From the IMG/VR virus record IMGVR_UViG_3300030320_000049: DNA of 64,000 nucleotides; one strand, written 5' to 3'. Positions 1-57,727 of the stretch are shown one piece after another. Positions within the stretch are counted from its first letter, which is position 1; every line of letters starts with the position of its first letter. The position numbers and the translations under genes are program-made. The notes beneath the pieces are model-generated. The model was not told the DNA's origin, made no database searches, and was given only the letters and a program-made list of their open reading frames with translations. The DNA is from a virus.

Positions 1-213
1 TGACTGATTTCCGGTATTGGTTGCCGCTGACTGATATCCGGTATTGGTTGCCGCTGACTGATATCCGGTATTGGTTGCCGCTGACCGATTTCCGGTATTG
101 GTTGCCGCTGACCAATTTCCGGTATTGGTTGCCGCTGACTGATTTCCGGTATTGGTTGCCGCTGACTGATATCCGGTATTGGTTGCCGCTGACTGATATC
201 CGGTATTGGTTGC
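1..213. repeat. 27-bp tandem repeat, about 8 units (ctgactgatWtccggtattggttgccg)
   Basis: Direct reading. The period of 27 nt equals 9 codons. Units differ only at the codons for two residues (Y/N and Q/R/W on the minus-strand frame). Confidence 0.95.
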
Positions 214-4666: not shown

Positions 4667-4787
4667 GAATCCACCCCCTTTACACTATCATCTTAATGTA
4701 TTACAATAACATTGTATCAAAAAATATACAATTACACAGGAAATGGCGAAATCAGCACATGCAGCGACGAATTTCGCACAAAAAGGG

Positions 4788-5498
4788 ATGATTTTTTTGA
4801 GGATTGCAATATGTGATGACAACGAATTACAAATTGAGATTTTTAAAACCAGAATGGACGGTTTTCTTCGTAGAAATGGGGACAGTGGATGCACGATTAC
4901 GGCATATACCACCGGGAAACCTCTTATTGATGATGTAAATGACGGCGTATGGTACGACATAATTGTGCTGGATATTATGTTGAAAGATGAAAATGGAATT
5001 GATGTTGCCCGGCATCTTAGAAAGAATGGATATGTAGGTAATATCACCTTTTGGACAGCCCACAAGGAATATGTGTTTGATGCTCTGGATATCCTTCCTG
5101 TTCACTATATCATAAAAGGCTCGGAAGATGGAAGAATGTATGGTGTAGTCAACAGGGAACTGGAAAATATCCATGATAAAACGCTGACTGTAAAGAACAA
5201 GGATTATTTCCACAGGGTTGGTTTCTGCCATATTGAATATATTGAAAGTCGCAATAAATACATCACTATCCATTGTACCTGTGGTATCACTCATATGCAG
5301 AGAGGGAAACTTTCGGACGTTGAAAAGCAACTGGACAGACGGTTTTTACGCTGCCACCAAAGTTACATTGTCAACATGGATGAAGTCTGGGAACTTCGTG
5401 CTGATTTCAGAATGGTATCTGGAGATGTGGTTCCGATTAGGAGAAAAGACCTTTCGGCGATCAGAAAACTTTATGAAGGCTATATTGCATTTAAGTAG
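4788..5498 (+). CDS. LytTR-family response regulator (REC + LytTR), orphan
   Basis: REC residues are present (ICDDN, IIVLDIML, FWTAH, YIIKG). LytTR domain ...HIEYIESRNKYITIHCTCG...FLRCHQSYIVNMDEV. The start could also be 4743 or a TTG at 4797. Confidence 0.85.
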   Translation: MIFLRIAICDDNELQIEIFKTRMDGFLRRNGDSGCTITAYTTGKPLIDDVNDGVWYDIIVLDIMLKDENGIDVARHLRKNGYVGNITFWTAHKEYVFDALDILPVHYIIKGSEDGRMYGVVNRELENIHDKTLTVKNKDYFHRVGFCHIEYIESRNKYITIHCTCGITHMQRGKLSDVEKQLDRRFLRCHQSYIVNMDEVWELRADFRMVSGDVVPIRRKDLSAIRKLYEGYIAFK

Positions 5499-5527
5499 CT
5501 CCCGGGAAAACCCCGGGAGTGTTTTTG
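5499..5527. terminator. bidirectional intrinsic terminator between convergent genes
   Basis: Stem ctcccggg / cccgggag followed by a T-run. Confidence 0.7.
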
Positions 5528-6334
5528 TTATTTAAGAAGTTTGTTTACTGCATTCTGCACTTCTGTGTAATTGTAGCCAGCTGATTCCAGACGGTCTCGT
5601 CTATCCTGTCCGTTTCCCCACTCGCCGTTAATTACCTCTTTTGCTACCTTGGCTACACTTTTCTTTGCAGTCACGGAATACACAGCTTTTCCATTCCAAT
5701 CAAAAACAGAATAACCGGCTTTGCAAGCTTTCTTTGCATTTTTGAGTGACTTGTACGCCCCGATCTGGCTCTTGGAATCCTTCCAGGTCTTGCGGACACG
5801 GTAATACTTATCAACCTTTACAGTCGGCTTTGTGGTTGGCACTGCCACGGTTTCAACAGAAATAAGCTTCTTGAATCTATCCCAGTCACCTTTTCCGCGT
5901 ATAACAGATGGACAATTCTTAGCGCACACATCGTAATGTTGCACTACTCGGAATGCCGGGATATTGTACTTTCTCATCAGTTGCTTGCATACATCAACGG
6001 TATTCTGGTATGCTTTTTCGTAATTGCAACCGGCATTCATGCACATTTCAATTCCAATAGAGTTGTGATTGTTTACAGTTCCAAAAAGCTTACCGCCGTA
6101 ATTTACTCCAACGTGCCATGCCCCGCGATTATACGGCAAAGCTTGGTATGCTGATTTATCGTCAACGAATACGTGGGCTGAATAGCCATGAAAATTGCCA
6201 TTATGCTGTGCGGTGGCGTGTGCCTTAGCATCTGCTGTCTTGGCGATATTATCTGTATTGTGGATGACAATATACCGAGGTGTTTGTCCTGCGTAGCTAT
6301 TATTGTTGCTGATTAATGAGGTATTGATATTCAT
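5528..6334 (-). CDS. endolysin: N-acetylmuramoyl-L-alanine amidase (Amidase_2/PGRP) with C-terminal CW_7 (Cpl-7) repeat
   Basis: PRYIVIHNTDN...AHVFVDD...AWHVG...NSIGIEMC. C-terminus VINGEWGNGQDRRDRLESAGYNYTEVQNAVNKLL matches the CW_7 pattern. Confidence 0.9.
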   Translation of the reverse strand: MNINTSLISNNNSYAGQTPRYIVIHNTDNIAKTADAKAHATAQHNGNFHGYSAHVFVDDKSAYQALPYNRGAWHVGVNYGGKLFGTVNNHNSIGIEMCMNAGCNYEKAYQNTVDVCKQLMRKYNIPAFRVVQHYDVCAKNCPSVIRGKGDWDRFKKLISVETVAVPTTKPTVKVDKYYRVRKTWKDSKSQIGAYKSLKNAKKACKAGYSVFDWNGKAVYSVTAKKSVAKVAKEVINGEWGNGQDRRDRLESAGYNYTEVQNAVNKLLK

Positions 6335-6371
6335 GTATGGTCTCCTTTCATTATTGAGGTTAAAAAGTGCA

Positions 6372-6398
6372 TAATAAAAAGCACCCCAAATGGGATGC
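6372..6398 (-). terminator. intrinsic terminator after the recombinase gene
   Basis: Minus strand GCAUCCC-AUUU-GGGGUGC followed by UUUUUAUU. Confidence 0.65.
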
Positions 6399-6415
6399 TC
6401 TTTAGCATAAACTCT

Positions 6416-7418
6416 TTATCCTATATATTTACGGTGATTATACTTCACATCTTCATTTTTTACTTTTGCGTATACCATAGTGGTATTTACACTAACATGG
6501 CCAAGCATTCTCTGGACATCAGTAACAGGAATTGATTTTTGAAGCATATCTGTGGCAACTGTATGTCTAAATAAGTGCGGAAATAGCTCTCTTCCAATAT
6601 CAGAGCGTTTTCCGAGGTTCCTTATAACTCTCTCGATAGCTTCTTTCTTTAAAGAATTGTGTGGCTTTCTTTCCGATACGAAAAGATATTCGGATTTATC
6701 ATCTCTGCTATTTAGATATTCGGAAAGATACAAGGCGCACTTTGCTGTAATGTATGATTTCCTGTGCTTACTTCCTTTTCCAAACAGCCATACTTCTCCT
6801 TTTTCAAAGTCCACATCAGAAATCTTAATTGTGCAAGCTTCCGTAACCCTGGCACCAGTACCGTACAAAAACTCTACCAATGCTTTTTCCCTAACGTTTT
6901 TGTAAGCCATTCGGACTTTTTCCAATTCAATAGCCGTAAGTCCTTCTCGTTCTTTTCTCTCGTACTTAATAACTTTTATTGCTCTGCAAGGATTCATCCC
7001 GATATACCCCTCATTTGCAGCCCACTCGAAAAAATCCGCTGATATTGTGCGGCAAGGTTTCAAGATAAGCCAGCGATATTTTCCGCTGTTCCTGGTACAT
7101 AGCCAAGTAGTATCTGAGATTGTAGGTAGTAATCTCATGCAGTGGCTTACAGATCTCATGTATCATCATGTAACACGTATCGTAGTACCTTTTGATAGTA
7201 GATTCCGCTTTTCCCTCAATTCGCTTGGTTGCTATATATTTTGCCAGCATACTGTCTGGAGTATTGTCCACTACCGTTAGTTCTGTGCTTCTCTCCTGCA
7301 CTTCGTAACTGTTCAGTTGAATACAGAGTTCATCCTGTACTGCCTGGAGCTGTTGATCATCTAATAGAGATTGCACCGCCAGCAATACATTGTTAATAAA
7401 CGTATTTCGTATATCCAT
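6416..7418 (-). pseudogene. XerC/D-like tyrosine recombinase interrupted by a 1-nt frameshift in an A6/T6 run
   Basis: Track ORFs 7011..7478 (SAM-like N domain, true start MDIRNT at 7418 with a ggagga RBS) and 6416..7159 (catalytic domain ...LFRHTVATDML...LGHVSVNTTMVYAKV) overlap in different frames. Removing one T at 7029..7034 joins ...NISGFF to EWAANEGYI. Confidence 0.85.
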
Positions 7419-7472
7419 AACCTTTATTCCTCCTTCTGCTTTATTGTAGCATCCGGAGGAAAGAAGGTCGCA

Positions 7473-7698
7473 AAACACGAAGTATACGAATGAAGTTTTA
7501 ACGTGTTCAGCAGGAGTGGTTAGAGAATATACATTTCCAAACCTGCCAGAACATAAAATATCATTTCCTGTTCTTATTGGTGCAAGTTCTAATATAGCTG
7601 GTTGCGTTGTTGCAAGAGACGTAAGTATTACTGGGAAAATAAAAGTATATAGTCCAATTCAACAAGATGTCCAAGTATTGCTTATTATGCTCAATTAA
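7473..7698 (+). other. start-less inverted ORF: candidate alternative tail-fibre C-terminal cassette
   Basis: The frame is open from 7450 with no plausible start. It shares the in-phase 9-mer AAACACGAA (7473..7481) with the tail-fibre gene (8144..8136). Confidence 0.4.
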
Positions 7699-7855
7699 AC
7701 TTTCCGGAATTTGCAATTTCATCTTGAACATATACAGTTAGATGGCAATACAGTAGTGATTGGGCAACATTTGTTGATACTTGTAGATTATATACAAAGA
7801 AACGTAAATGCAGCTGATTGTCAACAGCATTAAAAACATAGAGTGTAACGTGGCT

Positions 7856-8293
7856 TTAGTATGATTTCCAAGGTCTATAGTTATCTCCATTATGCGCTGT
7901 AAAGTGGCGAACGTTATTATCAATATCCCACACTTCTATAGTAGAATAACTTGAATATAATCTGCAAACAGTTATTGATTGCCTATTACTTGTGCATGGA
8001 TTTGATAAATTAGGATAGTCTGATTTCCATGCAGCAAATTTTATTCCAGTACCATCAGCTAATTTAATAAGTATCTGATCCCATGTTGCAGATGCTGTTA
8101 ATCCAATTTGAGATAAGGAACTGTAGAATTTAAAATTCGTGTTTAGTGCATTAATCCCTAGCGCCTCTTTCAACTGCGCTATAGTAATCTTCTGGGTTGT
8201 AGAGCCGTTCTCCAATACCACGATATCCGTATCCGATACTTTGGTAGCTGCTGGGAGAGCTGATATTAGTGTACTTGGTATAGATTCAGACAT
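7856..8293 (-). CDS. tail fibre / receptor-binding protein (145 aa)
   Basis: Last gene of the tail module. The N-terminus ...ALPAATKVSDTDIVVLENGSTTQKITIAQLKEAL resembles conserved phage fibre N-termini (from memory). Confidence 0.6.
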   Translation of the reverse strand: MSESIPSTLISALPAATKVSDTDIVVLENGSTTQKITIAQLKEALGINALNTNFKFYSSLSQIGLTASATWDQILIKLADGTGIKFAAWKSDYPNLSNPCTSNRQSITVCRLYSSYSTIEVWDIDNNVRHFTAHNGDNYRPWKSY

Positions 8294-8299
8294 TTTTCA

Positions 8300-8476
8300 T
8301 CAATCCTTTCTTGGAATTTTTTCAATTACTTTATTATTCTTTGTCATCAGGCACTTGCCGTCCTTTGTGGCCAGTGCGTATACTTTGTCGATGATCTTCA
8401 CGGACAGGACGAAGCTTGCTCTGGCGGTGACCGGGTTCGGTGTCATTTTTACATCGCTGATTAAAATATTCGCCAT
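8300..8476 (-). CDS. small ORF (58 aa), probable tail-associated protein
   Basis: Own translation MANILISDVKMTPNPVTARASFVLSVKIIDKVYALATKDGKCLMTKNNKVIEKIPRKD. It fills the gap between two tail genes. Weak RBS. Confidence 0.4.
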   Translation of the reverse strand: MANILISDVKMTPNPVTARASFVLSVKIIDKVYALATKDGKCLMTKNNKVIEKIPRKD

Positions 8477-8477
8477 A

Positions 8478-8747
8478 TCACTTCACCGCCACTTCTACTT
8501 CTGCAATCAACTTTTCGTCCAGGATTTCATACATCACTCTAAGTTTATATCTACCTTTTTTCTGCGGCTGTATAACCACATCAAGAATATGTCCTTGTAT
8601 TACCGCAATGCCACTATCTTCAACTTCTTGTGTTCCTTTGTAAAGCAACTCATAGGAAGCTCTTTCGATTAGAAAATCGGTACCTTTGCAGGAGCATATT
8701 CTTAGTTTTATATGTTTCTTTTCTCCGAATTCAAAATCCACATTCAC
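8478..8747 (-). CDS. hypothetical tail-module protein (89 aa)
   Basis: Track ORF in operon context. Confidence 0.55.
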   Translation of the reverse strand: MNVDFEFGEKKHIKLRICSCKGTDFLIERASYELLYKGTQEVEDSGIAVIQGHILDVVIQPQKKGRYKLRVMYEILDEKLIAEVEVAVK

Positions 8748-9048
8748 AGTTGCAACCTCCTATTAACTCTGCATAATACTCGGATTTTTCTAAAACCGCC
8801 CGATACTGTGGCTCTAATAACTCTTCATAATACGGACACGGCTCAATGTGAACACACATAGAAGATATATCTATGGTAATAATGTATCTTGCTATATATG
8901 CGGTATTTCCAGCTTCATCAACAGCGGACATGTCAACTACATAAGCGCCGTTAAGGCTTTTGGGGATGATGGCTTCCCATCTATCCCCTTGTGCCCTTGC
9001 GAATGAGATAATGTTTCCATTGATAGTACCCCTTAATGCTACTACCAT
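8731..9048 (-). CDS. Ig-like-fold tail-module protein (105 aa)
   Basis: Carries the motif VDEAGNTA, which is also repeated in the upstream gene. Confidence 0.6.
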   Translation of the reverse strand: MVVALRGTINGNIISFARAQGDRWEAIIPKSLNGAYVVDMSAVDEAGNTAYIARYIITIDISSMCVHIEPCPYYEELLEPQYRAVLEKSEYYAELIGGCNCECGF

Positions 9049-9064
9049 GTTTCCACCACCTTTA

Positions 9065-9976
9065 TCAGTCGGTAACCTCTACAGAGATTACAACGGTTTT
9101 TTCAGTATCAACCGGGTTCGGTGTTAATGTTACGGACTTGATGACAGGAGCCTTAGTGTCCAGTTTCACAGTTCTGGTTACAGTGGTACTCTTTCCGGCA
9201 CTATCAGTAGCCACTACGGTGATGGTATTGGTACCCTCAGTAAGAGTAATTACCTTAGACCAGGAGCCATCAGAAGCAACGGTTGCCGCCTCTGCGCTAC
9301 CACTATTCAGTTTGACAGTAACAGATACTGGGCTGGATGTTGCATCGTTTGTTGTACCACGAACAGTACAGGAAGCCTGGTTGGTAACAAGACCATCTGT
9401 CGGTGATGTAACGGAAAGTGTCGGCGGTACGGTATCAATTTTGAATGAAACGCTCTTCTGTGCTGCCGCATTTCCATCATAGTCAGACGCATTTACAGTA
9501 ATTGTATGGCTCCCGTCTGACAGGGCAGTACCAGGAGTATAAGTACATCTGTAACCGCCAGAAATAGTAGTCTTGGAAATACTGCTTCCCGTAATTTTAC
9601 TTCCAGAATCAATGGTGATACCAATGGTGGAAGGATCCACACCAGAATCATCATCGGTTATTGTCCAGACAATGCTTGGTTTGTTATTTGTAATCAGTGC
9701 GCTGGCTGTCGGGTATGTTATTGTTGAAATCGGCGCAACTTTTTCTCTTACCTTTAACTGTAATGAACTTCCTAACGTTGAATGACTAGCATCTGCTGTT
9801 TCTGCGTTTCCAGCATCATCAGTAGCTCTGATTGTTACCCCATAATAATGTCCCGATTGATTATAGCTGGATTTACTAGGGGCTGTAATCGTTCCATCAT
9901 ATCGTCCAGTAGAACTGTTATAGGTTAGACTTACGGTCTGTCCATTTACTGTAGCTTGTACTGTTTTTACACTCAT
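9065..9976 (-). CDS. tail protein with repeated bacterial Ig-like domains (303 aa)
   Basis: Repeated ...TDDAGNAE / SDYDGNAA / TDSAGKST... beta-domain signatures. Confidence 0.65.
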   Translation of the reverse strand: MSVKTVQATVNGQTVSLTYNSSTGRYDGTITAPSKSSYNQSGHYYGVTIRATDDAGNAETADASHSTLGSSLQLKVREKVAPISTITYPTASALITNNKPSIVWTITDDDSGVDPSTIGITIDSGSKITGSSISKTTISGGYRCTYTPGTALSDGSHTITVNASDYDGNAAAQKSVSFKIDTVPPTLSVTSPTDGLVTNQASCTVRGTTNDATSSPVSVTVKLNSGSAEAATVASDGSWSKVITLTEGTNTITVVATDSAGKSTTVTRTVKLDTKAPVIKSVTLTPNPVDTEKTVVISVEVTD

Positions 9977-9980
9977 ATTC

Positions 9981-12900
9981 TCATTCCTTTCGTGAAATAT
10001 TGTTGATAAGTTCTTTTAATTCCTGTACTTCTGTTGACAAAGCATCCAGTTTTGAATGCAGTTCCTGGTTGTCCGCTTGGAGAGCCAGGATTTTCTCATG
10101 GTCATTTTTCAGCATGGCAAACATGCAGGGGATTATAATACGGTAATTCCAGTTTTCAGCTTTGCCTTTTTCATTATGGTCAACGGCTAATGGAAATCTG
10201 CGGTCAATGTCCTCAGCTATGAACATCGGCATTTCTTTGCCATAGCGTTCATCTTGTTCGGATAAATATCCGTCTTTGTACTTCGCCCAGATTACCTTGA
10301 TTCTGTAGAGGTCTTCCAGTTCATCTTCTTTTATGTTTTTTCCGTTTCCTATTGATTTGTAACGAATCGAAGATGCAGCAGCCGCATTAAGAGTTTTCAT
10401 ATCAGATGCAAAAACAACAGCTGCACTTGCACTAGAGTTCCACGGCAGACCACTCATCGTAACGGACTTATGAAAATTAGCAGAATCATGAAAGTCTGAT
10501 TTAACATTTACTATCATGGAACCTGAGTTTACTGTTTTGCCACTAAAAAACTGAAAAGCTGTTTTTCCATCATCAGAATAACCATAAATATCATTTGTTA
10601 AAATGGTCATTGTGCCATTATCGTTAACCAAAAGAGGCATTTCTAGATTCAGTAATCCTGCTGAATCGGTTACTCCGTACTTAATTCCGCTTGAATCAAA
10701 AATAAGGCATTTATAGTTATTTTCATTTACATAATCTTTAAATATGGTTAATCCGTCAGGATCAAGCTTACTAGCCCATCCAGTTTCACGGCGGTTCAGT
10801 ACCTCTAATATCCCATACCCATTATTTTTACCGCCAAGCTTTAATGTGCCACCCTTGGCGTAAGTGAACGAAATATATAGCTGATTTCCCTCTTTATAAA
10901 TTCCTTTAATTGCGCCATCATTGGTTAAGAGGTTAAATATTTCTTCATGTGTAAGTGCATCTACATCAATTACAACCGCCATACTTTGGGAATCTAATGG
11001 TTGTGAAAATCCACCCGCCGCGTATAAGGTACATTTTATGGTACTTACATCTCTTGGAATTCCAATTGACCTTCCAGAAGCCGTTGTTATAATTCCTCCC
11101 GCTTTAGTTGATAATACCGTATATAAATTATGTGAAACGCTTGTTTCGTCTTTCGCAGAAGAATATACCGTTTTCCAATTTTCCCCATCTACGGATTCTT
11201 CGATTTTAAAACGACCTTTATATGCTGTTCGTGTTTCCGCGTTTCCATCGCGATACCAAGCACTCAAAGTAATATAGCTCGGGGCTACACTGCCATTCGC
11301 GCGTTGCTTAATAACATATGATGGGCTTTCAAGAAAATATGTTCTACCCGGAACTCCTTGTTCTCCCTTAATCTTTGTCCATGAATAGGCACCGGGGTTA
11401 GTGCTATCGGCTTCCGTATAATCTGTATACTGCCCGATGTATTCTTTTCCAGTGCTATCAGATACATCAAAGCCCATCTTACCATCCGCGCTGTTTGCGT
11501 AAGCTACATGGAAATATGGTGTTCTTCCGTCTGTTCCAGGTTTTCCTGGAGATCCATTTGCCCCATCTGCACCTTTTACAAGCGTCCATGCATAATCATC
11601 CGGGTTAGTGCTATCTTGTAGTCCAAAATCAACATATATACCGATATATTCCCGGTTACTATCAGACACCGAAAAATCGGTTTTACCATCTGCGCTATTG
11701 GCATAAGCAATATGGGTGTAACTTGTTTTTCCATCTCGTCCAGGTTCTCCCGGAAGACCGTTCTTTCCATCGTTTCCCGCATAAATTTTTGAAATGGAAA
11801 ATCTTTTGGTCACCGTCAAAGCACTAAGATAAGTTGCCCTAACATCTACCCAACCATCATCGGCTGACAGCCCCGTTACCGTATATGTCTTTGCTGAATT
11901 GTTCCAGATTCCTGTTATACTATCTGATTTTGTGATTATAAAATTACAATCATCTGTAATATCTTGTGTCCCGTACATTACTACAGCATGTGTAATCACA
12001 TCGCTAGGAAATGTGCCGTAATTTCCATCAGAATCAACAGAAACGCCCTGGTATTCATTGCTCAGTTGCAATGTCATGTTTTTGGCGAGAGCTGCCGCTT
12101 CCTGTGCCTGTTTCGCTGCCGACAATGCGTCCTCAGAATCTTTCAGTGCCTTTGTAACGTCCGTATCTTTCAGCTGTTTCCAATAATATCCATTGCCTTC
12201 ATTTACAAAGCGGTATGCGTGGCTATCGCCATCGTAGTAAATGTCACCGACATGCTTGCTCATTTCGGTATCGTCCAGCCATTCATTGGCCGGATAATTG
12301 CTCAATGTAGGTACTGATGTTCCTGTCCAGGTATTTATATTCCCATCGATCTGCCCCTGCATACTGTTTAACAGTCCATCCAAAGGAGATGCACCAATCC
12401 TAATTGAGGATCCATCCATTATTAATTGATGTTTAGTTATATCGGCAGAAAATATAATATTTCCGCTATTATCACGAACCACCAAGGCTCCCGTCTTAAT
12501 CCAGTCAGCATTAACACCTGTAGCCGTAAGGATTCTGGCAATCACATCACCATCGACCGTCATACCGCCATTCCAATGTTGTCCACCATCTGTAGATACC
12601 GCCCATGCTTCTGCGGTCATTTTCCATACAATGTCAGAATCGGATAGCTGTGGTTTGTTGTGAAGATAATAGATATTGCTTCCGTCCGACTGTGTTTCCA
12701 CTGTCGTGTATGTTCCAGAAGATTCCGCAAGGCGTTGTGATAATTCTTCCAGCGCTTTTTCCATAGAAGTACGCTCATCTCTTAAGCTTTTTCTATATTC
12801 AGATTGTGCCTGTTGATTAAGGGTATATTGCTTCTGTTTGTTTCTTGAAACACTCTTCGCACTGCATTCTAATTGTTCAAAAGTTCCCGGGTTCAATGTA

Positions 12901-16125: not shown

Positions 16126-17052
16126 TTAATACCCTACTTGAGTGACCCCATACTCTGCCTGTTCAGAAGTAAAGCCATCAAATTCCAATTGTTGAATCAG
16201 CCCATCTCTTGAAAAACTTGTAATATCCAAATAACTTTTAGCAGATTTTTCAGCTTGTCTATTCCAACTTGCTCCACAAAAGTCTGCTGCATATTTAGCT
16301 TCTTCATCTGTATATTGTGAAAATTTCAGTTGTTGAATTATTCCATTATAAGAAAACGAATTTATATCTAAATAGTCTATAGCTTCTTTCAGCGCATTTT
16401 TCTTTCCAAGCGGTACTTGTGGTGTATCTTCGCATTTTGAGATAGTGCAATCATATATATAATCTTGCGCAGAAATTGAATCTGGTTTTAAAAATATTCC
16501 CTCAACAGTAACGTAATCTCCCACCTGTAGTTTTAATACATTTGAGTTATTGCTTCTTACGAACATTGCAAATTCATCATATCCTGTATATGTTATAGAA
16601 TTATCAATTGAAATTTCAACACGATATGCGCCAGCCTTATTAACACTATTTGCTTGCCATTCTTGTTCTGTCGGAAGCTCTATGGTCTGTAACACATATC
16701 CATTTATTTTTACCTTATCTCCCATTGAAAAGTCTGGATAATCATTAATTTTTTCTGAATATATTTCTTTGATTACATCTTCGTAGTGGATTTCTGTATC
16801 CGCAGAATCATCAGAATCTCCAAATATCTCTGAATGGCTCATTTTATAAGTTTTCAATTCCAAATCTTCCCACAAATCCTTGCATACAGAAAATACCGCT
16901 TCTGTTTCTTCTTCTGTTGCTGGTTCTATTTGTGTTGTTTCTTTAGTTTCTTCCTTTTGTCCGATTTCCCACTTAAACGCCATGACAGGTGTCGCAGTCA
17001 CCAAACTCGCCATCACGGTTGCAGCAGCAATAACTCTTTTTACTTTCTTCAT
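16126..17052 (-). CDS. Ltp-like surface lipoprotein (superinfection-exclusion type)
   Basis: Signal peptide. Two C-terminal repeats A..YL....FS..G.IQQL.F..(Y/F)T.E.A.Y matching the Lipoprotein_Ltp pattern. Confidence 0.75.
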   Translation of the reverse strand: MKKVKRVIAAATVMASLVTATPVMAFKWEIGQKEETKETTQIEPATEEETEAVFSVCKDLWEDLELKTYKMSHSEIFGDSDDSADTEIHYEDVIKEIYSEKINDYPDFSMGDKVKINGYVLQTIELPTEQEWQANSVNKAGAYRVEISIDNSITYTGYDEFAMFVRSNNSNVLKLQVGDYVTVEGIFLKPDSISAQDYIYDCTISKCEDTPQVPLGKKNALKEAIDYLDINSFSYNGIIQQLKFSQYTDEEAKYAADFCGASWNRQAEKSAKSYLDITSFSRDGLIQQLEFDGFTSEQAEYGVTQVGY

Positions 17053-40266: not shown

Positions 40267-41469
40267 TTATTCACTTGCTTTAAAGTTATATATAGGTTTG
40301 ATAATATCAACTATTTCTACAGTATCTTTGATGTTATCAATAATTTCTTGCGGTGGTTTGTAGGCCATAGGGCTTTCATCAATTGTAGATTTCTGAACGG
40401 ATGTTGTATATATTCCATCCATAGACTCCTTAAATTCTTCTAACGAAATGTTTTCTTTTGCTTTTGACCGGCTCATAATACGTCCTGCGCCATGAGGGGC
40501 TGAACAGTTCCAATCATCGTTTCCTTTCCCGACTGCAATAATGCATCCGTCTCGCATATTCATGGGGATAAGAACTTTTTCACCATACTTAGCTGATATC
40601 GCACCTTTCCGAACAATATTTGTATCGTGGTCAATATAATTATGAATTGTGTCAAACCATGTATCTCTTTGAAGTGTCCAATTCATGCTGTAGAATATAG
40701 CCGACTGTATACATCTTCTGTTTATTCTTGCAAATTCTTGACAGATTTTCATATCATGCAGATATTGTTTTCTGTGTTCTCCTGTCAAGTAGCACAATTC
40801 TTTCGGAATGCCAAGTTTGTCTGGCTTCCATTTTCGTTTTAATTCGTCAATACCATTTTGAATTTCCTTGTGCCTGCCAGAGCACTTGTATTCTTTTATT
40901 AATTTCTGTATTTCAGTTTCAAGTTTATCTGTGCCCTGCATATCTTCTATGGCAATTTTTTGATATATTTCAGCTACTTGCTTCCCAAGGTTGCGACTTC
41001 CAGTATGAATTACAAGGTATTTTGCACCTTTTGAATTAGTGTCAACTTCAATAAAATGATTTCCACCCCCAAGCGTACCAAGGCTCCTGCGAATCCATTC
41101 GATATTTTTAAGCTGATGGAAGTAATGAAGTTCTTCTAATTCTTCAAAATTTATGATTTCGTCACGTACGTTTCTTCCTGCTGGAACATTTCTTCTTATT
41201 GCTTCGTCGAGAATTTTAAAATCTATTGTTCCAACGTCAGCAGGAATTTGCGTTGTAAGCATTCCACATCCAATGTCTACTCCAACAATGTTCGGAATTA
41301 CTTTATCTCCGAGATCAGCAGTAAAACCAATTACACATCCTGCTCCTGCGTGAACATCTGGCATGATTCGTACTTTGCATTCAGAAAATGCAGGCTGCTT
41401 TATCAATGTATAAATCTGATTTAATGCTTCTGGTTCAATGTTTTCTGTAAATATCTTCAAGTCACTCAT
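40267..41469 (-). CDS. rtcB: RtcB RNA 3'-phosphate/5'-OH ligase
   Basis: RIMPDVHAGAGCVIGFT, GGGNHFIEV, HTGSRNLG and SAPHGAGR motifs; 400 aa. Confidence 0.92.
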   Translation of the reverse strand: MSDLKIFTENIEPEALNQIYTLIKQPAFSECKVRIMPDVHAGAGCVIGFTADLGDKVIPNIVGVDIGCGMLTTQIPADVGTIDFKILDEAIRRNVPAGRNVRDEIINFEELEELHYFHQLKNIEWIRRSLGTLGGGNHFIEVDTNSKGAKYLVIHTGSRNLGKQVAEIYQKIAIEDMQGTDKLETEIQKLIKEYKCSGRHKEIQNGIDELKRKWKPDKLGIPKELCYLTGEHRKQYLHDMKICQEFARINRRCIQSAIFYSMNWTLQRDTWFDTIHNYIDHDTNIVRKGAISAKYGEKVLIPMNMRDGCIIAVGKGNDDWNCSAPHGAGRIMSRSKAKENISLEEFKESMDGIYTTSVQKSTIDESPMAYKPPQEIIDNIKDTVEIVDIIKPIYNFKASE

Positions 41470-44699: not shown

Positions 44700-44771
44700 T
44701 AGAAACAACAGGAATCGAACCTGTGTCACATGATATTGAGTATCATTGCTCTACCACTAAGCTATGTTTCA
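44700..44771 (-). tRNA. tRNA-like gene with anticodon UCA (opal-suppressor type), C33 and a U1-U72 mismatch
   Basis: Hand fold: UGAAACA UA GCUU AGUGGUA GAGC A AUGAU ACUCAAU AUCAU GUGAC ACAGG UUCGAUU CCUGU UGUUUCU A. Confidence 0.55.
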
Positions 44772-56357: not shown

Positions 56358-57554
56358 TCATCCAATCCTTTGCACTTTTGACACAATTTTATTTTTTTCT
56401 TCCAAAGAGCTAACATCAAATGTATAATATTTTTCATTAACTTCTTCGGTATGCCCGAGTAGCGATGCAGCAACAGTGGCAGATACTCCATTGCACCTTA
56501 GTTTAGAATTTATTGTTCTTCTAAATGCATGAATTCCTCTTTCTTCTATTCCTTCCTGCCTGCATTTGTTTTTTAAGCATGACGATATTACAGGAGCATG
56601 AACCCTTCCATTTTCGTTTGAAAACAACCATTCACTAATATACCCATTGCTGATTTCTGCTGATTTTAATTTCATTAAAAGTTTTCGAATTTCGCCAGTC
56701 ATAGGAAACCATCTGTTCATTTGATTTTTTGTTTTTCCTATATAGTATTCTTTTGTATTTCTATTGTATTTTTCTGATTTATTAATAGATATATAATTTT
56801 CATTTATATCTTCCCATTTTAAAGCCGAAATTTCTCCAACTCTCATCCCTGTGAGACTTGCAAAATATACTGCGTATGAGGGAATGTATTCTGGCTGTTC
56901 ATCAAAATCCTTTTTGCAGCGATTAATAATTAGTTTAAGTTCATGGTCTGATATTGTATTATGACTTGAAGGCTTTTCTATCTCCGTGCAGTATTTATAA
57001 AATATTTTAGGTGAAAGAAATTCCATAGGATCATAATTCAATAAATGTTGTGACCTTGCACTATCTATTGTGTTTTTGATATATCCAAACAAAGTTTTAC
57101 ACGCTTTTTTGCAAAGTTTTTGATCTTTTACAGTTCTGACAATGAATACCTTTATATCTTCTTCTGTCATTTTCTCAATTTCTTTTTCCGTAAATTCTTT
57201 TTTTTCAAAATAACGTGCTCTATCTGTAGAATACTTATACAAAGTGTTATCCGTCACAAATTCTTTTTGAATTTCTATCCAATGCTCGTAAACATCCATA
57301 AATGTTTTAGGTTTTTCTGTTTTTTCTTTCTCGAAAGCAATAATATAATCTTCAATTCCCTTTCGGCTACTTCTTTTCACTAGCTTTCTAGAATTTTTTT
57401 CTGTATAAATATAAGTATACCAATTATTGTTTTTTCCCTGCCATATTTTATATTTTTTTAATATTTCTTCATTTTTCTTCATTTGTATTTCTTCAAGTAC
57501 ATGTGCAGGATTTATAATACCATTCTCAATAGCATATTTCAATATTTCATCCAT
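56358..57554 (-). CDS. int: tyrosine integrase
   Basis: ...ALKWEDINENYISINKSEKYN...HAFRRTINSKL...LLGHTEEVNEKYYTF. Start taken at MDEILKY; the track ORF extends to 57668. Confidence 0.85.
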   Translation of the reverse strand: MDEILKYAIENGIINPAHVLEEIQMKKNEEILKKYKIWQGKNNNWYTYIYTEKNSRKLVKRSSRKGIEDYIIAFEKEKTEKPKTFMDVYEHWIEIQKEFVTDNTLYKYSTDRARYFEKKEFTEKEIEKMTEEDIKVFIVRTVKDQKLCKKACKTLFGYIKNTIDSARSQHLLNYDPMEFLSPKIFYKYCTEIEKPSSHNTISDHELKLIINRCKKDFDEQPEYIPSYAVYFASLTGMRVGEISALKWEDINENYISINKSEKYNRNTKEYYIGKTKNQMNRWFPMTGEIRKLLMKLKSAEISNGYISEWLFSNENGRVHAPVISSCLKNKCRQEGIEERGIHAFRRTINSKLRCNGVSATVAASLLGHTEEVNEKYYTFDVSSLEEKNKIVSKVQRIG

Positions 57555-57561
57555 AAAATTT

Positions 57562-57610
57562 AGGAGGAACCGGGAATTCCTTTTGCCGGCCGGCGGTTCC
57601 TGTTCCTCCT
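57562..57610 (-). promoter_or_regulatory. strong hairpin (AGGAGGAAC / GUUCCUCCU with nested GGAACCG/CGGUUCC) just upstream of int
   Basis: Direct reading. It is followed by AAAUUUUAUG on the minus strand. Confidence 0.45.
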
Positions 57611-57727
57611 TTCTATTGATAGCCTGTTTTTTTGATTTTAAGCGCTTATTTTGTTTTAACCATAACAATATTCACGAATATCATAAAAATTAATTTTAGC
57701 CGTTTTGGTCAAAACAATTATCATATT

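Follow-up and report, generated by a model that had tools for sequence, protein, structure and literature searches.

A reduced and most likely frozen tail-tip shufflon beside a frameshifted Xer-like recombinase gene in a Lachnospiraceae phage

The window analysed here is a stretch of 64,000 nucleotides from a virus (IMG/VR record IMGVR_UViG_3300030320_000049), in which positions 7419..8293 hold a small tail gene and a silent cassette next to a recombinase gene. The small tail gene (8293..7856, minus strand) encodes 145 aa and closes the tail module; the genes before it encode Ig-like proteins and a 1306-aa tail protein (PHROG tail protein, E = 1.7e-176). Its open reading frame is composed of two parts. 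The constant 5' module (8136..8293, minus strand; codons 1-52 plus the core) donates the start codon to whichever tip sits 3' of it; the N-terminus that the original prediction described as conserved does correspond to a conserved module, formed by the first 52-54 aa. The module ends in a 9-bp core, AAACACGAA, the expression site s1 (8136..8144, minus strand), which codes for Asn51-Thr52. The rest of the frame is tip cassette A (7856..8135, minus strand; 93 codons and a stop), which is currently expressed. Convergent with it, across a spacer of 157 bp (7699..7855), lies tip cassette B (7482..7698, plus strand; 72 codons and TAA), a silent cassette that lacks its own start codon; no ATG occurs in the frame 7450..7698, as had been predicted, and this frame stays open after a TAG at 7447..7449. 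The same 9-mer recurs before cassette B as the silent site s2 (7473..7481, plus strand), inverted relative to s1, and the common codon phase described for the two copies (xxA AAC ACG AAx, coding Asn-Thr) was also confirmed. The 654 bp between the cores (7482..8135; tip A, spacer, and tip B) form the invertible segment as delimited by blastn against the related locus L003, and the spacer inverts along with the cassettes.

The core site is 9 bp long, with only about three partly conserved flanking bases per side, and is absent from the 25 longest inverted repeats of the window. The probability of such a repeat arising by chance had been estimated at 0.1-0.2, but an inverted shared 9-mer between intervals of about 440 nt was found in 63% of shuffles; when the in-frame position and an open frame of at least 60 aa were required as well, 8 of 2000 shuffles remained. 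The repeat is not significant in the window alone; it is the comparative data that make it so. A similarity between tips A and B was rejected, since BLASTP detected none, and the Y(P/F)NL(S/P) patch that the two tips were said to share is not meaningful (E = 16). A scan of 6300..9100 for consensus promoters and terminators gave hits no commoner than in shuffled sequences, and no promoter was identified there. Among close relatives, dN/dS was about 1.0 for tip B (12 pairs), with no sign of purifying selection, and about 0.55 for tip A, at divergences too low to decide on selection on silent cassettes.

The recombinase gene (6416..7418, minus strand) had been taken to be a single gene, but its 1003 nt are not a multiple of three, and it consists of two frames, 7418..7011 (135 aa) and 7159..6416. 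Pfam places Phage_int_SAM_4 (PF13495) in the first frame and Phage_integrase (PF00589) in the second, and the catalytic Arg, Lys, His, Arg, His, and Tyr are conserved in the latter. Among NCBIfam models, the protein is closest to XerA (212.9 bits versus a cut-off of 220), XerC (170.9 versus 335), and XerD (164.5 versus 330), and the matches listed contain no Rci-named model. All three scores lie below the curated cut-offs and do not assign the protein, whose N-terminus is extended by about 55 aa, to any of these families; it belongs to the Xer-like fold family but is not a Xer equivalog. A tblastn search against GenBank phages gave no match above 42% identity. The gene is mosaic as well as frameshifted: identity to the intact gene of L019 ends at 7102, and its C-terminal part shares 88% identity with an intact 332-aa homolog (P0042). 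Removal of one T restores ...GFFEWAANEGY..., which compares with ...AFFEWAANEGY... in intact homologs. A run of six T's on the coding strand (T6; 7029..7034, minus strand) is the simplest candidate for the 1-nt shift, which may lie anywhere in 7102..7029. The frameshift is fixed in the lineage, all 16 of the loci examined having the gene split in the same way; samples with this lineage include SRR23926825, DRR741345, SRR8845297, ERR12330545, DRR741652, and DRR327158. A scan of IMG/VR for the in-frame T5 version returned the T6 form only, once. Readthrough of the TGA by the phage's UGA-reading tRNA was rejected because the continuation is unlike recombinases. The gene is probably a pseudogene of a shufflon invertase. 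It is unlikely to be the phage integrase, since it is bounded by cores in all lineages and a separate tyrosine recombinase of 436 aa, which could be the integration enzyme, is encoded at 56358..57668. The leader of the recombinase mRNA contains a hairpin (inverted repeat I3; 7420..7468, minus strand) in which CCUCC pairs with the GGAGG Shine-Dalgarno sequence (RNAfold, -26.6 kcal/mol, z = -4.6). Hairpins that are analogous but differ in sequence occur in L069, L071, L072, L075, and L078, and the structure probably throttles translation of the recombinase.

The original prediction held that inversion would fuse the N-terminus in frame to an alternative tip beginning with KYTNEVLTCSAG. A public protein search with the silent ORF alone found this protein in public assemblies: P0001 (124 aa, 21 contigs) equals the predicted fusion except for Pro6Gln, and consists of the N-terminus followed by KYTNEV..., with a tip 100% identical to the query. 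The tip comprises 72 aa after Asn-Thr, not 74 aa as first given, which yields the fusion protein of 124 aa. The start-less region 7450..7698, which might have proved to be unrelated noncoding DNA, thus has a homolog that is translated as the tip of P0001. Comparison with related phages, which had been suggested as a check, revealed the opposite orientation of 7482..8135 in ten contigs encoding P0001. All ten loci (L002-L011) show the order N-terminal module (N), tip B, reverse-complemented spacer, and reverse-complemented tip A, so that tip A is the silent inverted cassette there. In blastn, window positions 8144..7473 align in inverted orientation with 6821..6150 of L003 at 99.6% identity, and the flanks are 91-92% identical. 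The flipped junctions, CTAAACACGAA joined to GTATACG and AAAATTCGTGTTT joined to TGCGACC, are those of a reciprocal exchange inside the 9-mer. The inverted segment of the P0001 contigs adjoins an intact tyrosine recombinase. L006 ends in 140 nt that repeat its N-terminal module exactly in reverse complement (N-B...rcA-rcN), and both junction types are present in this one contig; L008-L010 stop 3-8 nt past the core. These assemblies suggest that the inversion may take place within a single phage population.

Some features of the contigs could raise the suspicion that the flipped forms are artefacts in which de Bruijn graphs were mis-joined at short repeats: the inverted end of L006 is hairpin-like, and L045 forms a circular path. 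There are also two-cassette forms without a recombinase, which occur in both orientations (L002 versus L097) and may reflect a recombinase acting in trans, deletions that arose independently, or chimeric paths through the assembly. We nevertheless regard an artefactual origin as extremely improbable. The 9-bp repeat is far shorter than the k-mer sizes (31-141) and so could not by itself cause mis-joins; the flipped state recurs in dozens of independent samples, in MEGAHIT, SPAdes, and Logan assemblies, with lineage-specific SNPs; and graph branches at the core need reads carrying both junctions. Since the locus breaks short-read assemblies, it also affects how gut virome contigs and apparent "strain variants" are read.

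Relatives with an intact 332-aa recombinase (L003, L019, L022-L029, and others) carry larger versions of the locus; samples containing such relatives include ERZ27271564, ERZ27242239, SRR35523996, and ERZ27287027. In L003, L004, and L019, four cores are arranged in the order +, -, recombinase, +, -, so that the recombinase is flanked by two invertible segments. In L003 the chance expectation was 0.11 cores, and four were not reached in any of 200 shuffles. Every core in the intact relatives is followed by an in-frame open tip of 72-96 aa. The combination of four sites, four in-frame tips, and a tyrosine recombinase bears out the prediction of a switch operated by a tyrosine rather than a serine recombinase. 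The tail genes of L019 and L022 are 99.86% identical, and the segments [A..B] and [C2..E] are exchanged around the recombinase; many further arrangements were seen in IMG/VR and metagenome loci. Prophages of Lachnospiraceae encode homologs of the recombinase with 53-87% identity, and in most of the prophage loci long enough to be judged the recombinase gene is flanked on each side by inverted cores. In six prophages the core is a different one, identical within each locus (TAAACACGGAT, TAAACACCGAT, AAACACGGGA, TAAACACGAG, and TAAACACGGG), and these variants each precede open tips. Such prophages are common in Lachnospiraceae, and some genomes, e.g. Eubacterium sp. 14-2 and Parablautia, contain two copies. 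Blautia ammoniilytica Sanger_23 and Parablautia Marseille-Q6255 are among the strains with a homologous locus. In some lineages the core at the expression site is point-mutated (AAACGCGAA, with an A-to-G change, and AAACAGTAA). Taken together, the flipped allele, the four-core relatives, the swapped segments, and the prophage homologs indicate a real shufflon with multiple inversions.

The same N-terminus was found joined to many different tips. A megablast search of 5500..10000 against GenBank phages gave one match only, limited to the N-terminal module: MT835739.1 shares window positions 8133..8317 (97%), beyond which its 141-aa tip is unrelated. About ten proteins of 86-164 aa in the representative library align over residues 1 to 54..64 and no further, with 81-98% identity. 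When the 52-aa N-terminus was searched by itself against proteins, eight hits were obtained, all of them truncated or misassembled fragments. The population contains more than 15 tip families, with four tips per genome in the full-size relatives. Tip A occupies other shufflon positions in L022-L031, L050, and L051. Tip B is expressed as N+B (the constant module followed by tip B) in P0001, P0002, P0010, P0011, P0022, and P0029, and it stands behind four different left flanks, including the s2, s3, and s4 flanks in other contigs. In many relatives, MT835739.1 and a set of 28 loci among them, the constant module is joined to one fixed tip, and neither a silent cassette nor a recombinase is present, which shows that tips are exchanged by mosaicism too. 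Mosaicism might even be proposed to account for the whole locus, the 9-mer being a chance repeat and the tips having been traded between phages at a conserved domain boundary through ordinary homologous recombination and exchange of modules. Besides the fixed-tip relatives, such a proposal could draw on the lack of significance of the inverted 9-mer in the window alone and on the fact that orientation tracks lineage, N+B being seen only with the Gln6 N-terminus. It leaves unexplained, however, the precise reciprocal inversion of 654 bp bounded by 9-bp repeats, the excess of cores per locus over chance expectation with an in-frame cassette behind every one, the variation of cores from lineage to lineage despite their identity within each locus, the invariable placement of a tyrosine recombinase between the sites, and the two junction types in a single contig. 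We consider it very improbable that no site-specific inversion is involved.

The small tail protein has no Pfam or PHROG assignment. AF2 gave a pLDDT of 35.6 from the single sequence and 89.7 with an alignment of 77 sequences. The model matched R-pyocin fibre tips, the phi812 baseplate, and viral baseplate and tail-fibre models best, with weak TM scores of 0.42-0.52. These matches, together with the position of the gene, suggest that the protein may be a receptor-binding tail tip, and the inversion may change the host range.

We propose the following mechanism for the shufflon. The constant module of 52 codons ends in the core AAACACGAA (Asn-Thr), and start-less cassettes with the same core and codon phase are located 3' of it in both orientations. 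The adjacent Xer-like tyrosine recombinase, which we infer to be the catalyst, would recombine two inverted cores, and the intervening DNA would flip to bring another cassette in frame behind the constant module. The target would be the small tail protein of about 125-145 aa, whose C-terminal tip would be exchanged. For a flipped allele of the window lineage, the predicted junctions are GCACTAAACACGAAGTATACGAATG and TTTAAAATTCGTGTTTTGCGACC.

The copy in the window itself (7419..8293) is, in our judgement, a reduced shufflon for the tip swap of this protein, and it is most likely frozen with tip A expressed. It retains one invertible segment (7482..8135), two cores, and two cassettes. The mosaic, frameshifted recombinase makes it probable that the copy does not switch on its own; the recombinase is intact in relatives and split here, which marks the window as a decayed member of the group, and the loss of the second invertible segment in its lineage fits such decay. 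All 21 contigs keyed on the window recombinase allele, each at least 20 kb long and assembled without breaks, carry the 145-aa N+A gene, and an N+B protein with the Pro6 N-terminus of the window was not found in the protein collection. Orientation counts were nonetheless rejected as a test of locking: the Pro6 sister phages, whose recombinase is intact, are likewise always N+A in consensus assemblies, and the consensus orientation therefore fits a frozen switch and an active one with tip A in the majority alike. The switch might still be active if the frameshifted recombinase were rescued at a low level, for which transcriptional or translational slippage at T6 or cooperation of the two halves could be the route, or if a related recombinase from a co-resident prophage acted in trans. 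The two cores are identical and undamaged, the frame of tip B remains open, the catalytic residues are kept in the second frame, and loss of one T from T6 gives a full-length recombinase; action in trans would also suit the recombinase-less forms found in both orientations and the frequency of recombinase-family prophages, sometimes two to a genome, in Lachnospiraceae. Against this stand the uniform N+A contigs, the absence of a Pro6 N+B protein from the protein collection, and the lost second segment; six T's are short for efficient slippage, and the shift required is +1 (or -2) rather than the common -1. Continued activity thus seems rather unlikely to us, and the window copy is presumably inactive.

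More broadly, and only tentatively, the locus may belong to a large undescribed family of shufflons with Xer-like invertases in Lachnospiraceae phages (including those of Blautia, Parablautia, Acetatifactor, Petralouisia, and Roseburia) that is repeatedly frozen and passes through a cycle of switching and locked states; on balance we are inclined to doubt so wide a reading. The marks of the family would be an invertase gene between two invertible segments and a core inside an Asn-Thr codon pair, and the routes to freezing would be a frameshifted mosaic invertase, mutated cores (AAACGCGAA or AAACAGTAA), and recombinase-less deletion forms. If the broad reading is true, abundant human-gut phages cycle between switching (generalist) and locked (specialist) states, and the locked specialists include the common lineage of the window. 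The phage is common: the index of the public assembly collection has the N+A protein of the window in 461 blocks. Lachnospiraceae rank among the dominant and least tractable bacteria of the human gut. More than 15 interchangeable tips at a defined 9-bp junction are of direct use in host-range engineering, and repeated decay of the switch would be a natural experiment on when receptor switching benefits phages.

Several known systems resemble the locus. The Gin, Cin, Pin, and Min systems of Mu, P1, e14, and p15B employ serine invertases, a Fis-dependent enhancer, and 26-bp gix/cix sites. Their logic is the same as here, with a fixed portion of the fibre (Sc), variable portions that alternate by inversion of a DNA segment, and a switch of host range (at the present locus a putative one), and Min of p15B is also a multi-segment shufflon; the recombinase here, in contrast, is of the tyrosine type (PF00589 and PF13495) and not a serine recombinase. 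The shufflon of R64/IncI plasmids consists of the tyrosine recombinase Rci, sfx sites, and pilV, the sites spanning 31 bp and including a conserved arm of 12 bp and a spacer of 7 bp. Common features are the tyrosine recombinase, multiple inversions among short asymmetric sites with asymmetric conservation around them, and C-terminal swaps behind a constant N-terminus. The R64 system, however, is a plasmid system acting on a pilus adhesin, whereas a phage tail protein is the target here, the recombinase matches Xer-type models best, the site is 9 bp, and the locus lies outside the Rci/sfx/pilV group. To our knowledge, Bifidobacterium prophages and, very recently, BV01-like phages of Bacteroidaceae are the only phages reported to have host-range switches driven by tyrosine recombinases. 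These two systems, Rin (PMC6109161) and the BV01-like shufflon (PMC13596623), are closer precedents than the Rci shufflons named in the original prediction.

In the Rin shufflon of Bifidobacterium breve and B. longum prophages, a constant N-terminus of the receptor-binding protein (Rc) is combined with several promoterless cassettes for variable C-termini (Rv) in both orientations, each preceded by an 11-bp asymmetric rix site, next to a tyrosine-family recombinase that lacks an arm-binding domain; one prophage has a rin gene inactivated by a point mutation (Mavrich et al. 2018, PMC6109161). Compared by layout, both systems are phage-encoded and have a constant part with cassettes, a short repeat, and an adjacent tyrosine recombinase, and the inactivated rin parallels the frameshift in the window. 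They differ in host (Actinobacteria versus Lachnospiraceae, Firmicutes) and in core, TTCCCTAACCC being unrelated to AAACACGAA; moreover, the Rin recombinase flanks the cassette array, whereas here the gene has an invertible segment on either side and sites at its own boundaries, and the protein, at 124-145 aa, is much smaller. The BV01-like phages of Phocaeicola vulgatus have a recombinase-flanked, multi-cassette shufflon over the distal end of a tail-fibre gene, with 10-bp directional motifs and configurations that differ between samples, in which three cassettes give six isoforms through different stop positions (PMC13596623, 2026 preprint). They, too, are temperate gut phages with a multi-cassette tail-tip shufflon, a recombinase, short directional motifs, and sample-variable configurations. 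Their host belongs to Bacteroidota, however, their motif is TGGGAGAACT with 14-18-bp extensions, and their activity was shown with reads, whereas for the present system it is suggested by assemblies. The shufflons of Lachnospiraceae phages apparently represent a third, undescribed family of such switches.

The small tail gene of the window (8293..7856, minus strand) encodes 145 aa, and a start-less frame (7450..7698, plus strand), open after the TAG at 7447..7449 and designated silent tip B, converges on it. One copy of the 9-mer AAACACGAA, hereafter the core, occupies 8144..8136 on the tail-gene coding strand and a second occupies 7473..7481 on the plus strand, both in the phase xxA AAC ACG AAx coding for Asn-Thr. 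The layout agrees with the original prediction, according to which inversion would fuse the constant N-terminal module (N) of the tail protein in frame to an alternative tip; this tip comprises 72 aa after Asn-Thr, not 74 as proposed. A short patch thought to be shared by the two tips corresponds to no real similarity (BLASTP of tip against tip, E = 16). On the window data alone, the inverted repeat does not reach significance. AAACACGAA occurs three times in the window versus 0.82 expected and is not among its 25 longest inverted repeats, and an inverted 9-mer common to both intervals appeared in 63% of shuffles, much more often than the 0.1-0.2 previously estimated.

The flipped form was found in public sequences. 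Submitting the 72-aa silent ORF alone as the query against 5.8 billion public proteins yielded P0001, a protein of 124 aa present on 21 contigs, which reads MSESIQSTL...ALGINALNT followed by KYTNEVLTCSAG...IMLN. This is the predicted in-frame fusion, with Pro6Gln (residue 6 of N) as the sole difference. Ten P0001-encoding contigs (loci L002-L011) were inspected, and all ten displayed the order of constant module, tip B, reverse-complemented spacer, and reverse-complemented tip A, the last being the tip carried by the window gene. The first junction is ...GCACTAAACACGAA|GTATACGAATG and the second is ...TTTAAAATTCGTGTTT|TGCGACC, and the pair amounts to a reciprocal exchange within the 9-mer. In a blastn comparison, window positions 8144..7473 and L003 positions 6821..6150 matched in inverted orientation with 99.6% identity, whereas the flanks of this segment were only 91-92% identical. 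Comparison with related phages, as proposed at the outset, shows the flipped orientation in these contigs. For the element family as a whole, the original interpretation is supported.

In related loci L003 and L004, the tyrosine recombinase is intact (332 aa) and four cores are present, at 6150 (+), 6813 (-), 7970 (+), and 8660 (-), versus 0.11 expected by chance; none of 200 shuffles gave four. Behind each core is an in-frame open tip (B, 72 aa; A, 93 aa; C, 92 aa; and D, 96 aa). In L019, to which the window is 98% identical as far as position 7102, the recombinase is also intact and the tips are A, B, C2, and E. The cores and tips of these three loci therefore define a locus in which cores separate the constant module, invertible segment X, the segment with the recombinase, invertible segment Y, and a fixed flank. 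Searching IMG/VR with the flank of silent site s2, and IMG/VR and metagenomes with the expression site, revealed many arrangements of the locus and more than 15 tip families. Tip B follows four kinds of left flank: the N-terminus, PEERRSQNT (s2), RNQQNT (s3), and ISRINT (s4). L019 and L022 are 99.86% identical across 2.9 kb of tail genes, but segments A..B and C2..E are exchanged around the recombinase, a swap reachable via serial inversions and not via one simple event. The four flanks of tip B and this swap show that shuffling has taken place.

Several assemblies point to both states being present together in one sample. L006 ends in 140 nt that repeat its own constant module exactly in reverse complement, giving the order N-B...rcA-rcN (rc, reverse-complemented), and three Logan contigs end 3-8 nt past the core. 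In addition, the path of L045 (IMGVR_UViG_3300029493_000166) runs through flank3, core, A..rcB, core, flank2, recombinase, and flank3 (flank2 and flank3 being the DNA next to s2 and s3); it reflects either mixed arrangements joined into a circular path during assembly or the circle that deletion between direct sites would excise. Odd fusions are encoded on short contigs (P0004, from a 1.3-kb contig, and P0034-P0040): one fuses tip B to the start of an Ig-like protein, MSVKTVQA..., and others are constant modules continuing into unrelated sequence. These are probably misassemblies at a rearranging locus.

In the recombinase, a SAM-like core-binding domain is paired with a catalytic domain. Its closest models are XerA, XerC, and XerD, with scores under their curated cut-offs, and among PDB structures the XerC-like recombinase 4a8e matches best (E = 2e-33). 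In the leader of the gene, a hairpin (7420..7468, minus strand; -26.6 kcal/mol, z = -4.6) pairs the Shine-Dalgarno (SD) sequence with CCUCC, and hairpins with other sequences but the same anti-SD/SD pairing are located upstream of the recombinase in L069, L071, L072, L075, and L078. The recurrence of SD-sequestering hairpins with different sequences suggests that translation of the invertase is throttled and held low. The window encodes a second, distinct tyrosine recombinase of 436 aa (56358..57668, minus strand; Pfam Phage_integrase, E = 9e-16), a candidate integrase or resolvase. The shufflon enzyme is not necessarily the integrase. The recombinase search found no close relative of the shufflon enzyme among GenBank phages.

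In the window itself, the 1003-nt region 6416..7418, originally taken as a single recombinase gene, reads as two separate frames, 7418..7011 and 7159..6416, overlapping at 7159..7011. The identity with the intact L019 gene ends at 7102, and from around residue 130 the window recombinase is another allele, 88% identical to the intact 332-aa protein P0042. If the T6 run at 7029..7034 is shortened by one T, the sequence becomes ...GFFEWAANEGY..., matching the intact homologs, and this run is therefore a candidate for the frameshift site. The split was present in all 16 loci of the lineage, derived from different samples and different assemblers, which rules out sequencing error as its cause. The window lineage also lacks the second invertible segment. 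N fused to tip A (N+A) lies upstream in all 21 contigs, each of at least 20 kb, keyed on the window recombinase allele, and no N+B with the Pro6 N-terminus of the window was found in the protein collection. Pro6 sister phages with an intact recombinase are likewise always N+A in consensus assemblies, and the case for a frozen element therefore rests on the frameshift and not on the orientation counts. The window element is a decayed copy, probably frozen on tip A.

Other lineages also have altered or reduced switches. The expression-site core is AAACGCGAA (Thr to Ala) with tip C2 expressed in L022-L025, L027-L029, and L031, the L022 type being very common, and AAACAGTAA with tip F expressed in L042, L056, and L060. 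The silent cores and the recombinase are intact in both lineages, and the mutated expression-site cores look like independent routes to a locked switch. Two-cassette forms without the recombinase (L002, L005, L007, L008, L011, L030, and L097) have the s2 core joined straight to the s4 flank, corresponding to a deletion between direct-repeat sites, and exist in both orientations (N+B in L002 and N+A in L097). They could be true deletions, reflect action in trans, or represent chimeric graph paths; as deletions, they seem to be another route to locking.

The Gln6 lineage (L002, L003, and L068, the last a 309-kb contig, GCA_964261755.1) is an integrated prophage whose lysis end adjoins host dgt (HD domain), dnaG, and rpoD. 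Its lysis cassette contains holin_4_1 and Amidase_3/SPOR, versus Amidase_2/CW_7 in the window. The window also encodes a LytTR-type response regulator directly after the lysin gene and an Ltp-like surface lipoprotein with a possible role in superinfection exclusion (4743..5498, plus strand, and 16126..17052, minus strand). ARAGORN reported a 72-nt 'tRNA-SeC' with anticodon TCA (44700..44771, minus strand; considered together with 46700..47419 and 40267..41469), probably a suppressor tRNA that reads UGA. Its neighbors are two tRNA-Met genes, one tRNA-Gln gene, and a gene for the RNA ligase RtcB, and the cluster could be a module for stop-codon recoding or tRNA repair.

The small tail gene closes the tail module, preceded by genes for a tail protein of 1306 aa and for Ig-like proteins, and its product matched no family in Pfam or PHROG. 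A full HMMER scan showed that the N-terminal 54 aa are found in many proteins 110-170 aa long whose tips are unrelated, and that tip A recurs as the C-terminus of other, longer proteins. The AF2 model, built with a 77-sequence alignment, had a pLDDT of 89.7. Its best PDB matches were R1/R2 pyocin fiber tips and phi812 baseplate proteins (E about 0.03, TM about 0.4), and the best viral-model matches were baseplate and tail-fiber proteins (TM up to 0.52), which is compatible with a fiber tip but is not proof. In the related phage L001 (MT835739.1, 27802..37986), the same 53-aa N module, 97% identical at the DNA level, continues from the same Asn-Thr-Asn point into a 141-aa tip of unrelated sequence; this phage encodes a large serine recombinase and a lysin of the GH25 type, and carries no silent cassette. 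About 28 more loci carry N+A with no shufflon whatsoever. The L001 fusion and these loci indicate that the Asn-Thr junction is also a general module boundary.

With the L019 recombinase as query, 17 loci were found in the GTDB representative genomes, and every named host was a member of the Lachnospiraceae, including Blautia ammoniilytica (87%), Parablautia, Eubacterium sp. 14-2, Petralouisia muris, Acetatifactor muris, and a Roseburia MAG. In most loci of sufficient length, inverted cores flanked the recombinase on either side, eight loci having the full +, -, recombinase, +, - layout. The constant parts are different, longer proteins ending in ...L/Q-N-T, followed by open tips of around 80-200 aa. 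Six loci have a core unlike AAACACGAA, with identical copies within each locus (TAAACACGGAT, TAAACACCGAT, AAACACGGGA, TAAACACGAG, and TAAACACGGG). AAACAC is the invariant portion, and the lineage-specific 3' part would fit a crossover (overlap) region that needs to match between partner sites. Conservation beside the 9-mer is partial, at about three bases per side (roughly RCW-AAACACGAA-KWT). A 33%-identical 'integrase' lies mid-genome in the cultured 36-kb Terrisporobacter phage TPELB_ph1 (PP197244.1, 17750..18628) and may point to a further tail-tip inversion locus.

Shufflons that are phage-encoded, use a tyrosine recombinase, and act on receptor-binding proteins have precedents: Rin of Bifidobacterium prophages, which has an 11-bp rix site and was described as the first phage-encoded invertase of the tyrosine family (PMC6109161), and the shufflon of BV01-like Phocaeicola phages (PMC13596623). 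Full-text literature searches yielded no description of the Lachnospiraceae family. The R64 Rci shufflon, Mu Gin, P1 Cin, and p15B Min follow the same logic as this family but, unlike it, use another target or a serine invertase. The features of its own are the invertase placed between two invertible segments, the 9-bp Asn-Thr core, the very small target protein, and the apparently repeated loss of the switch.
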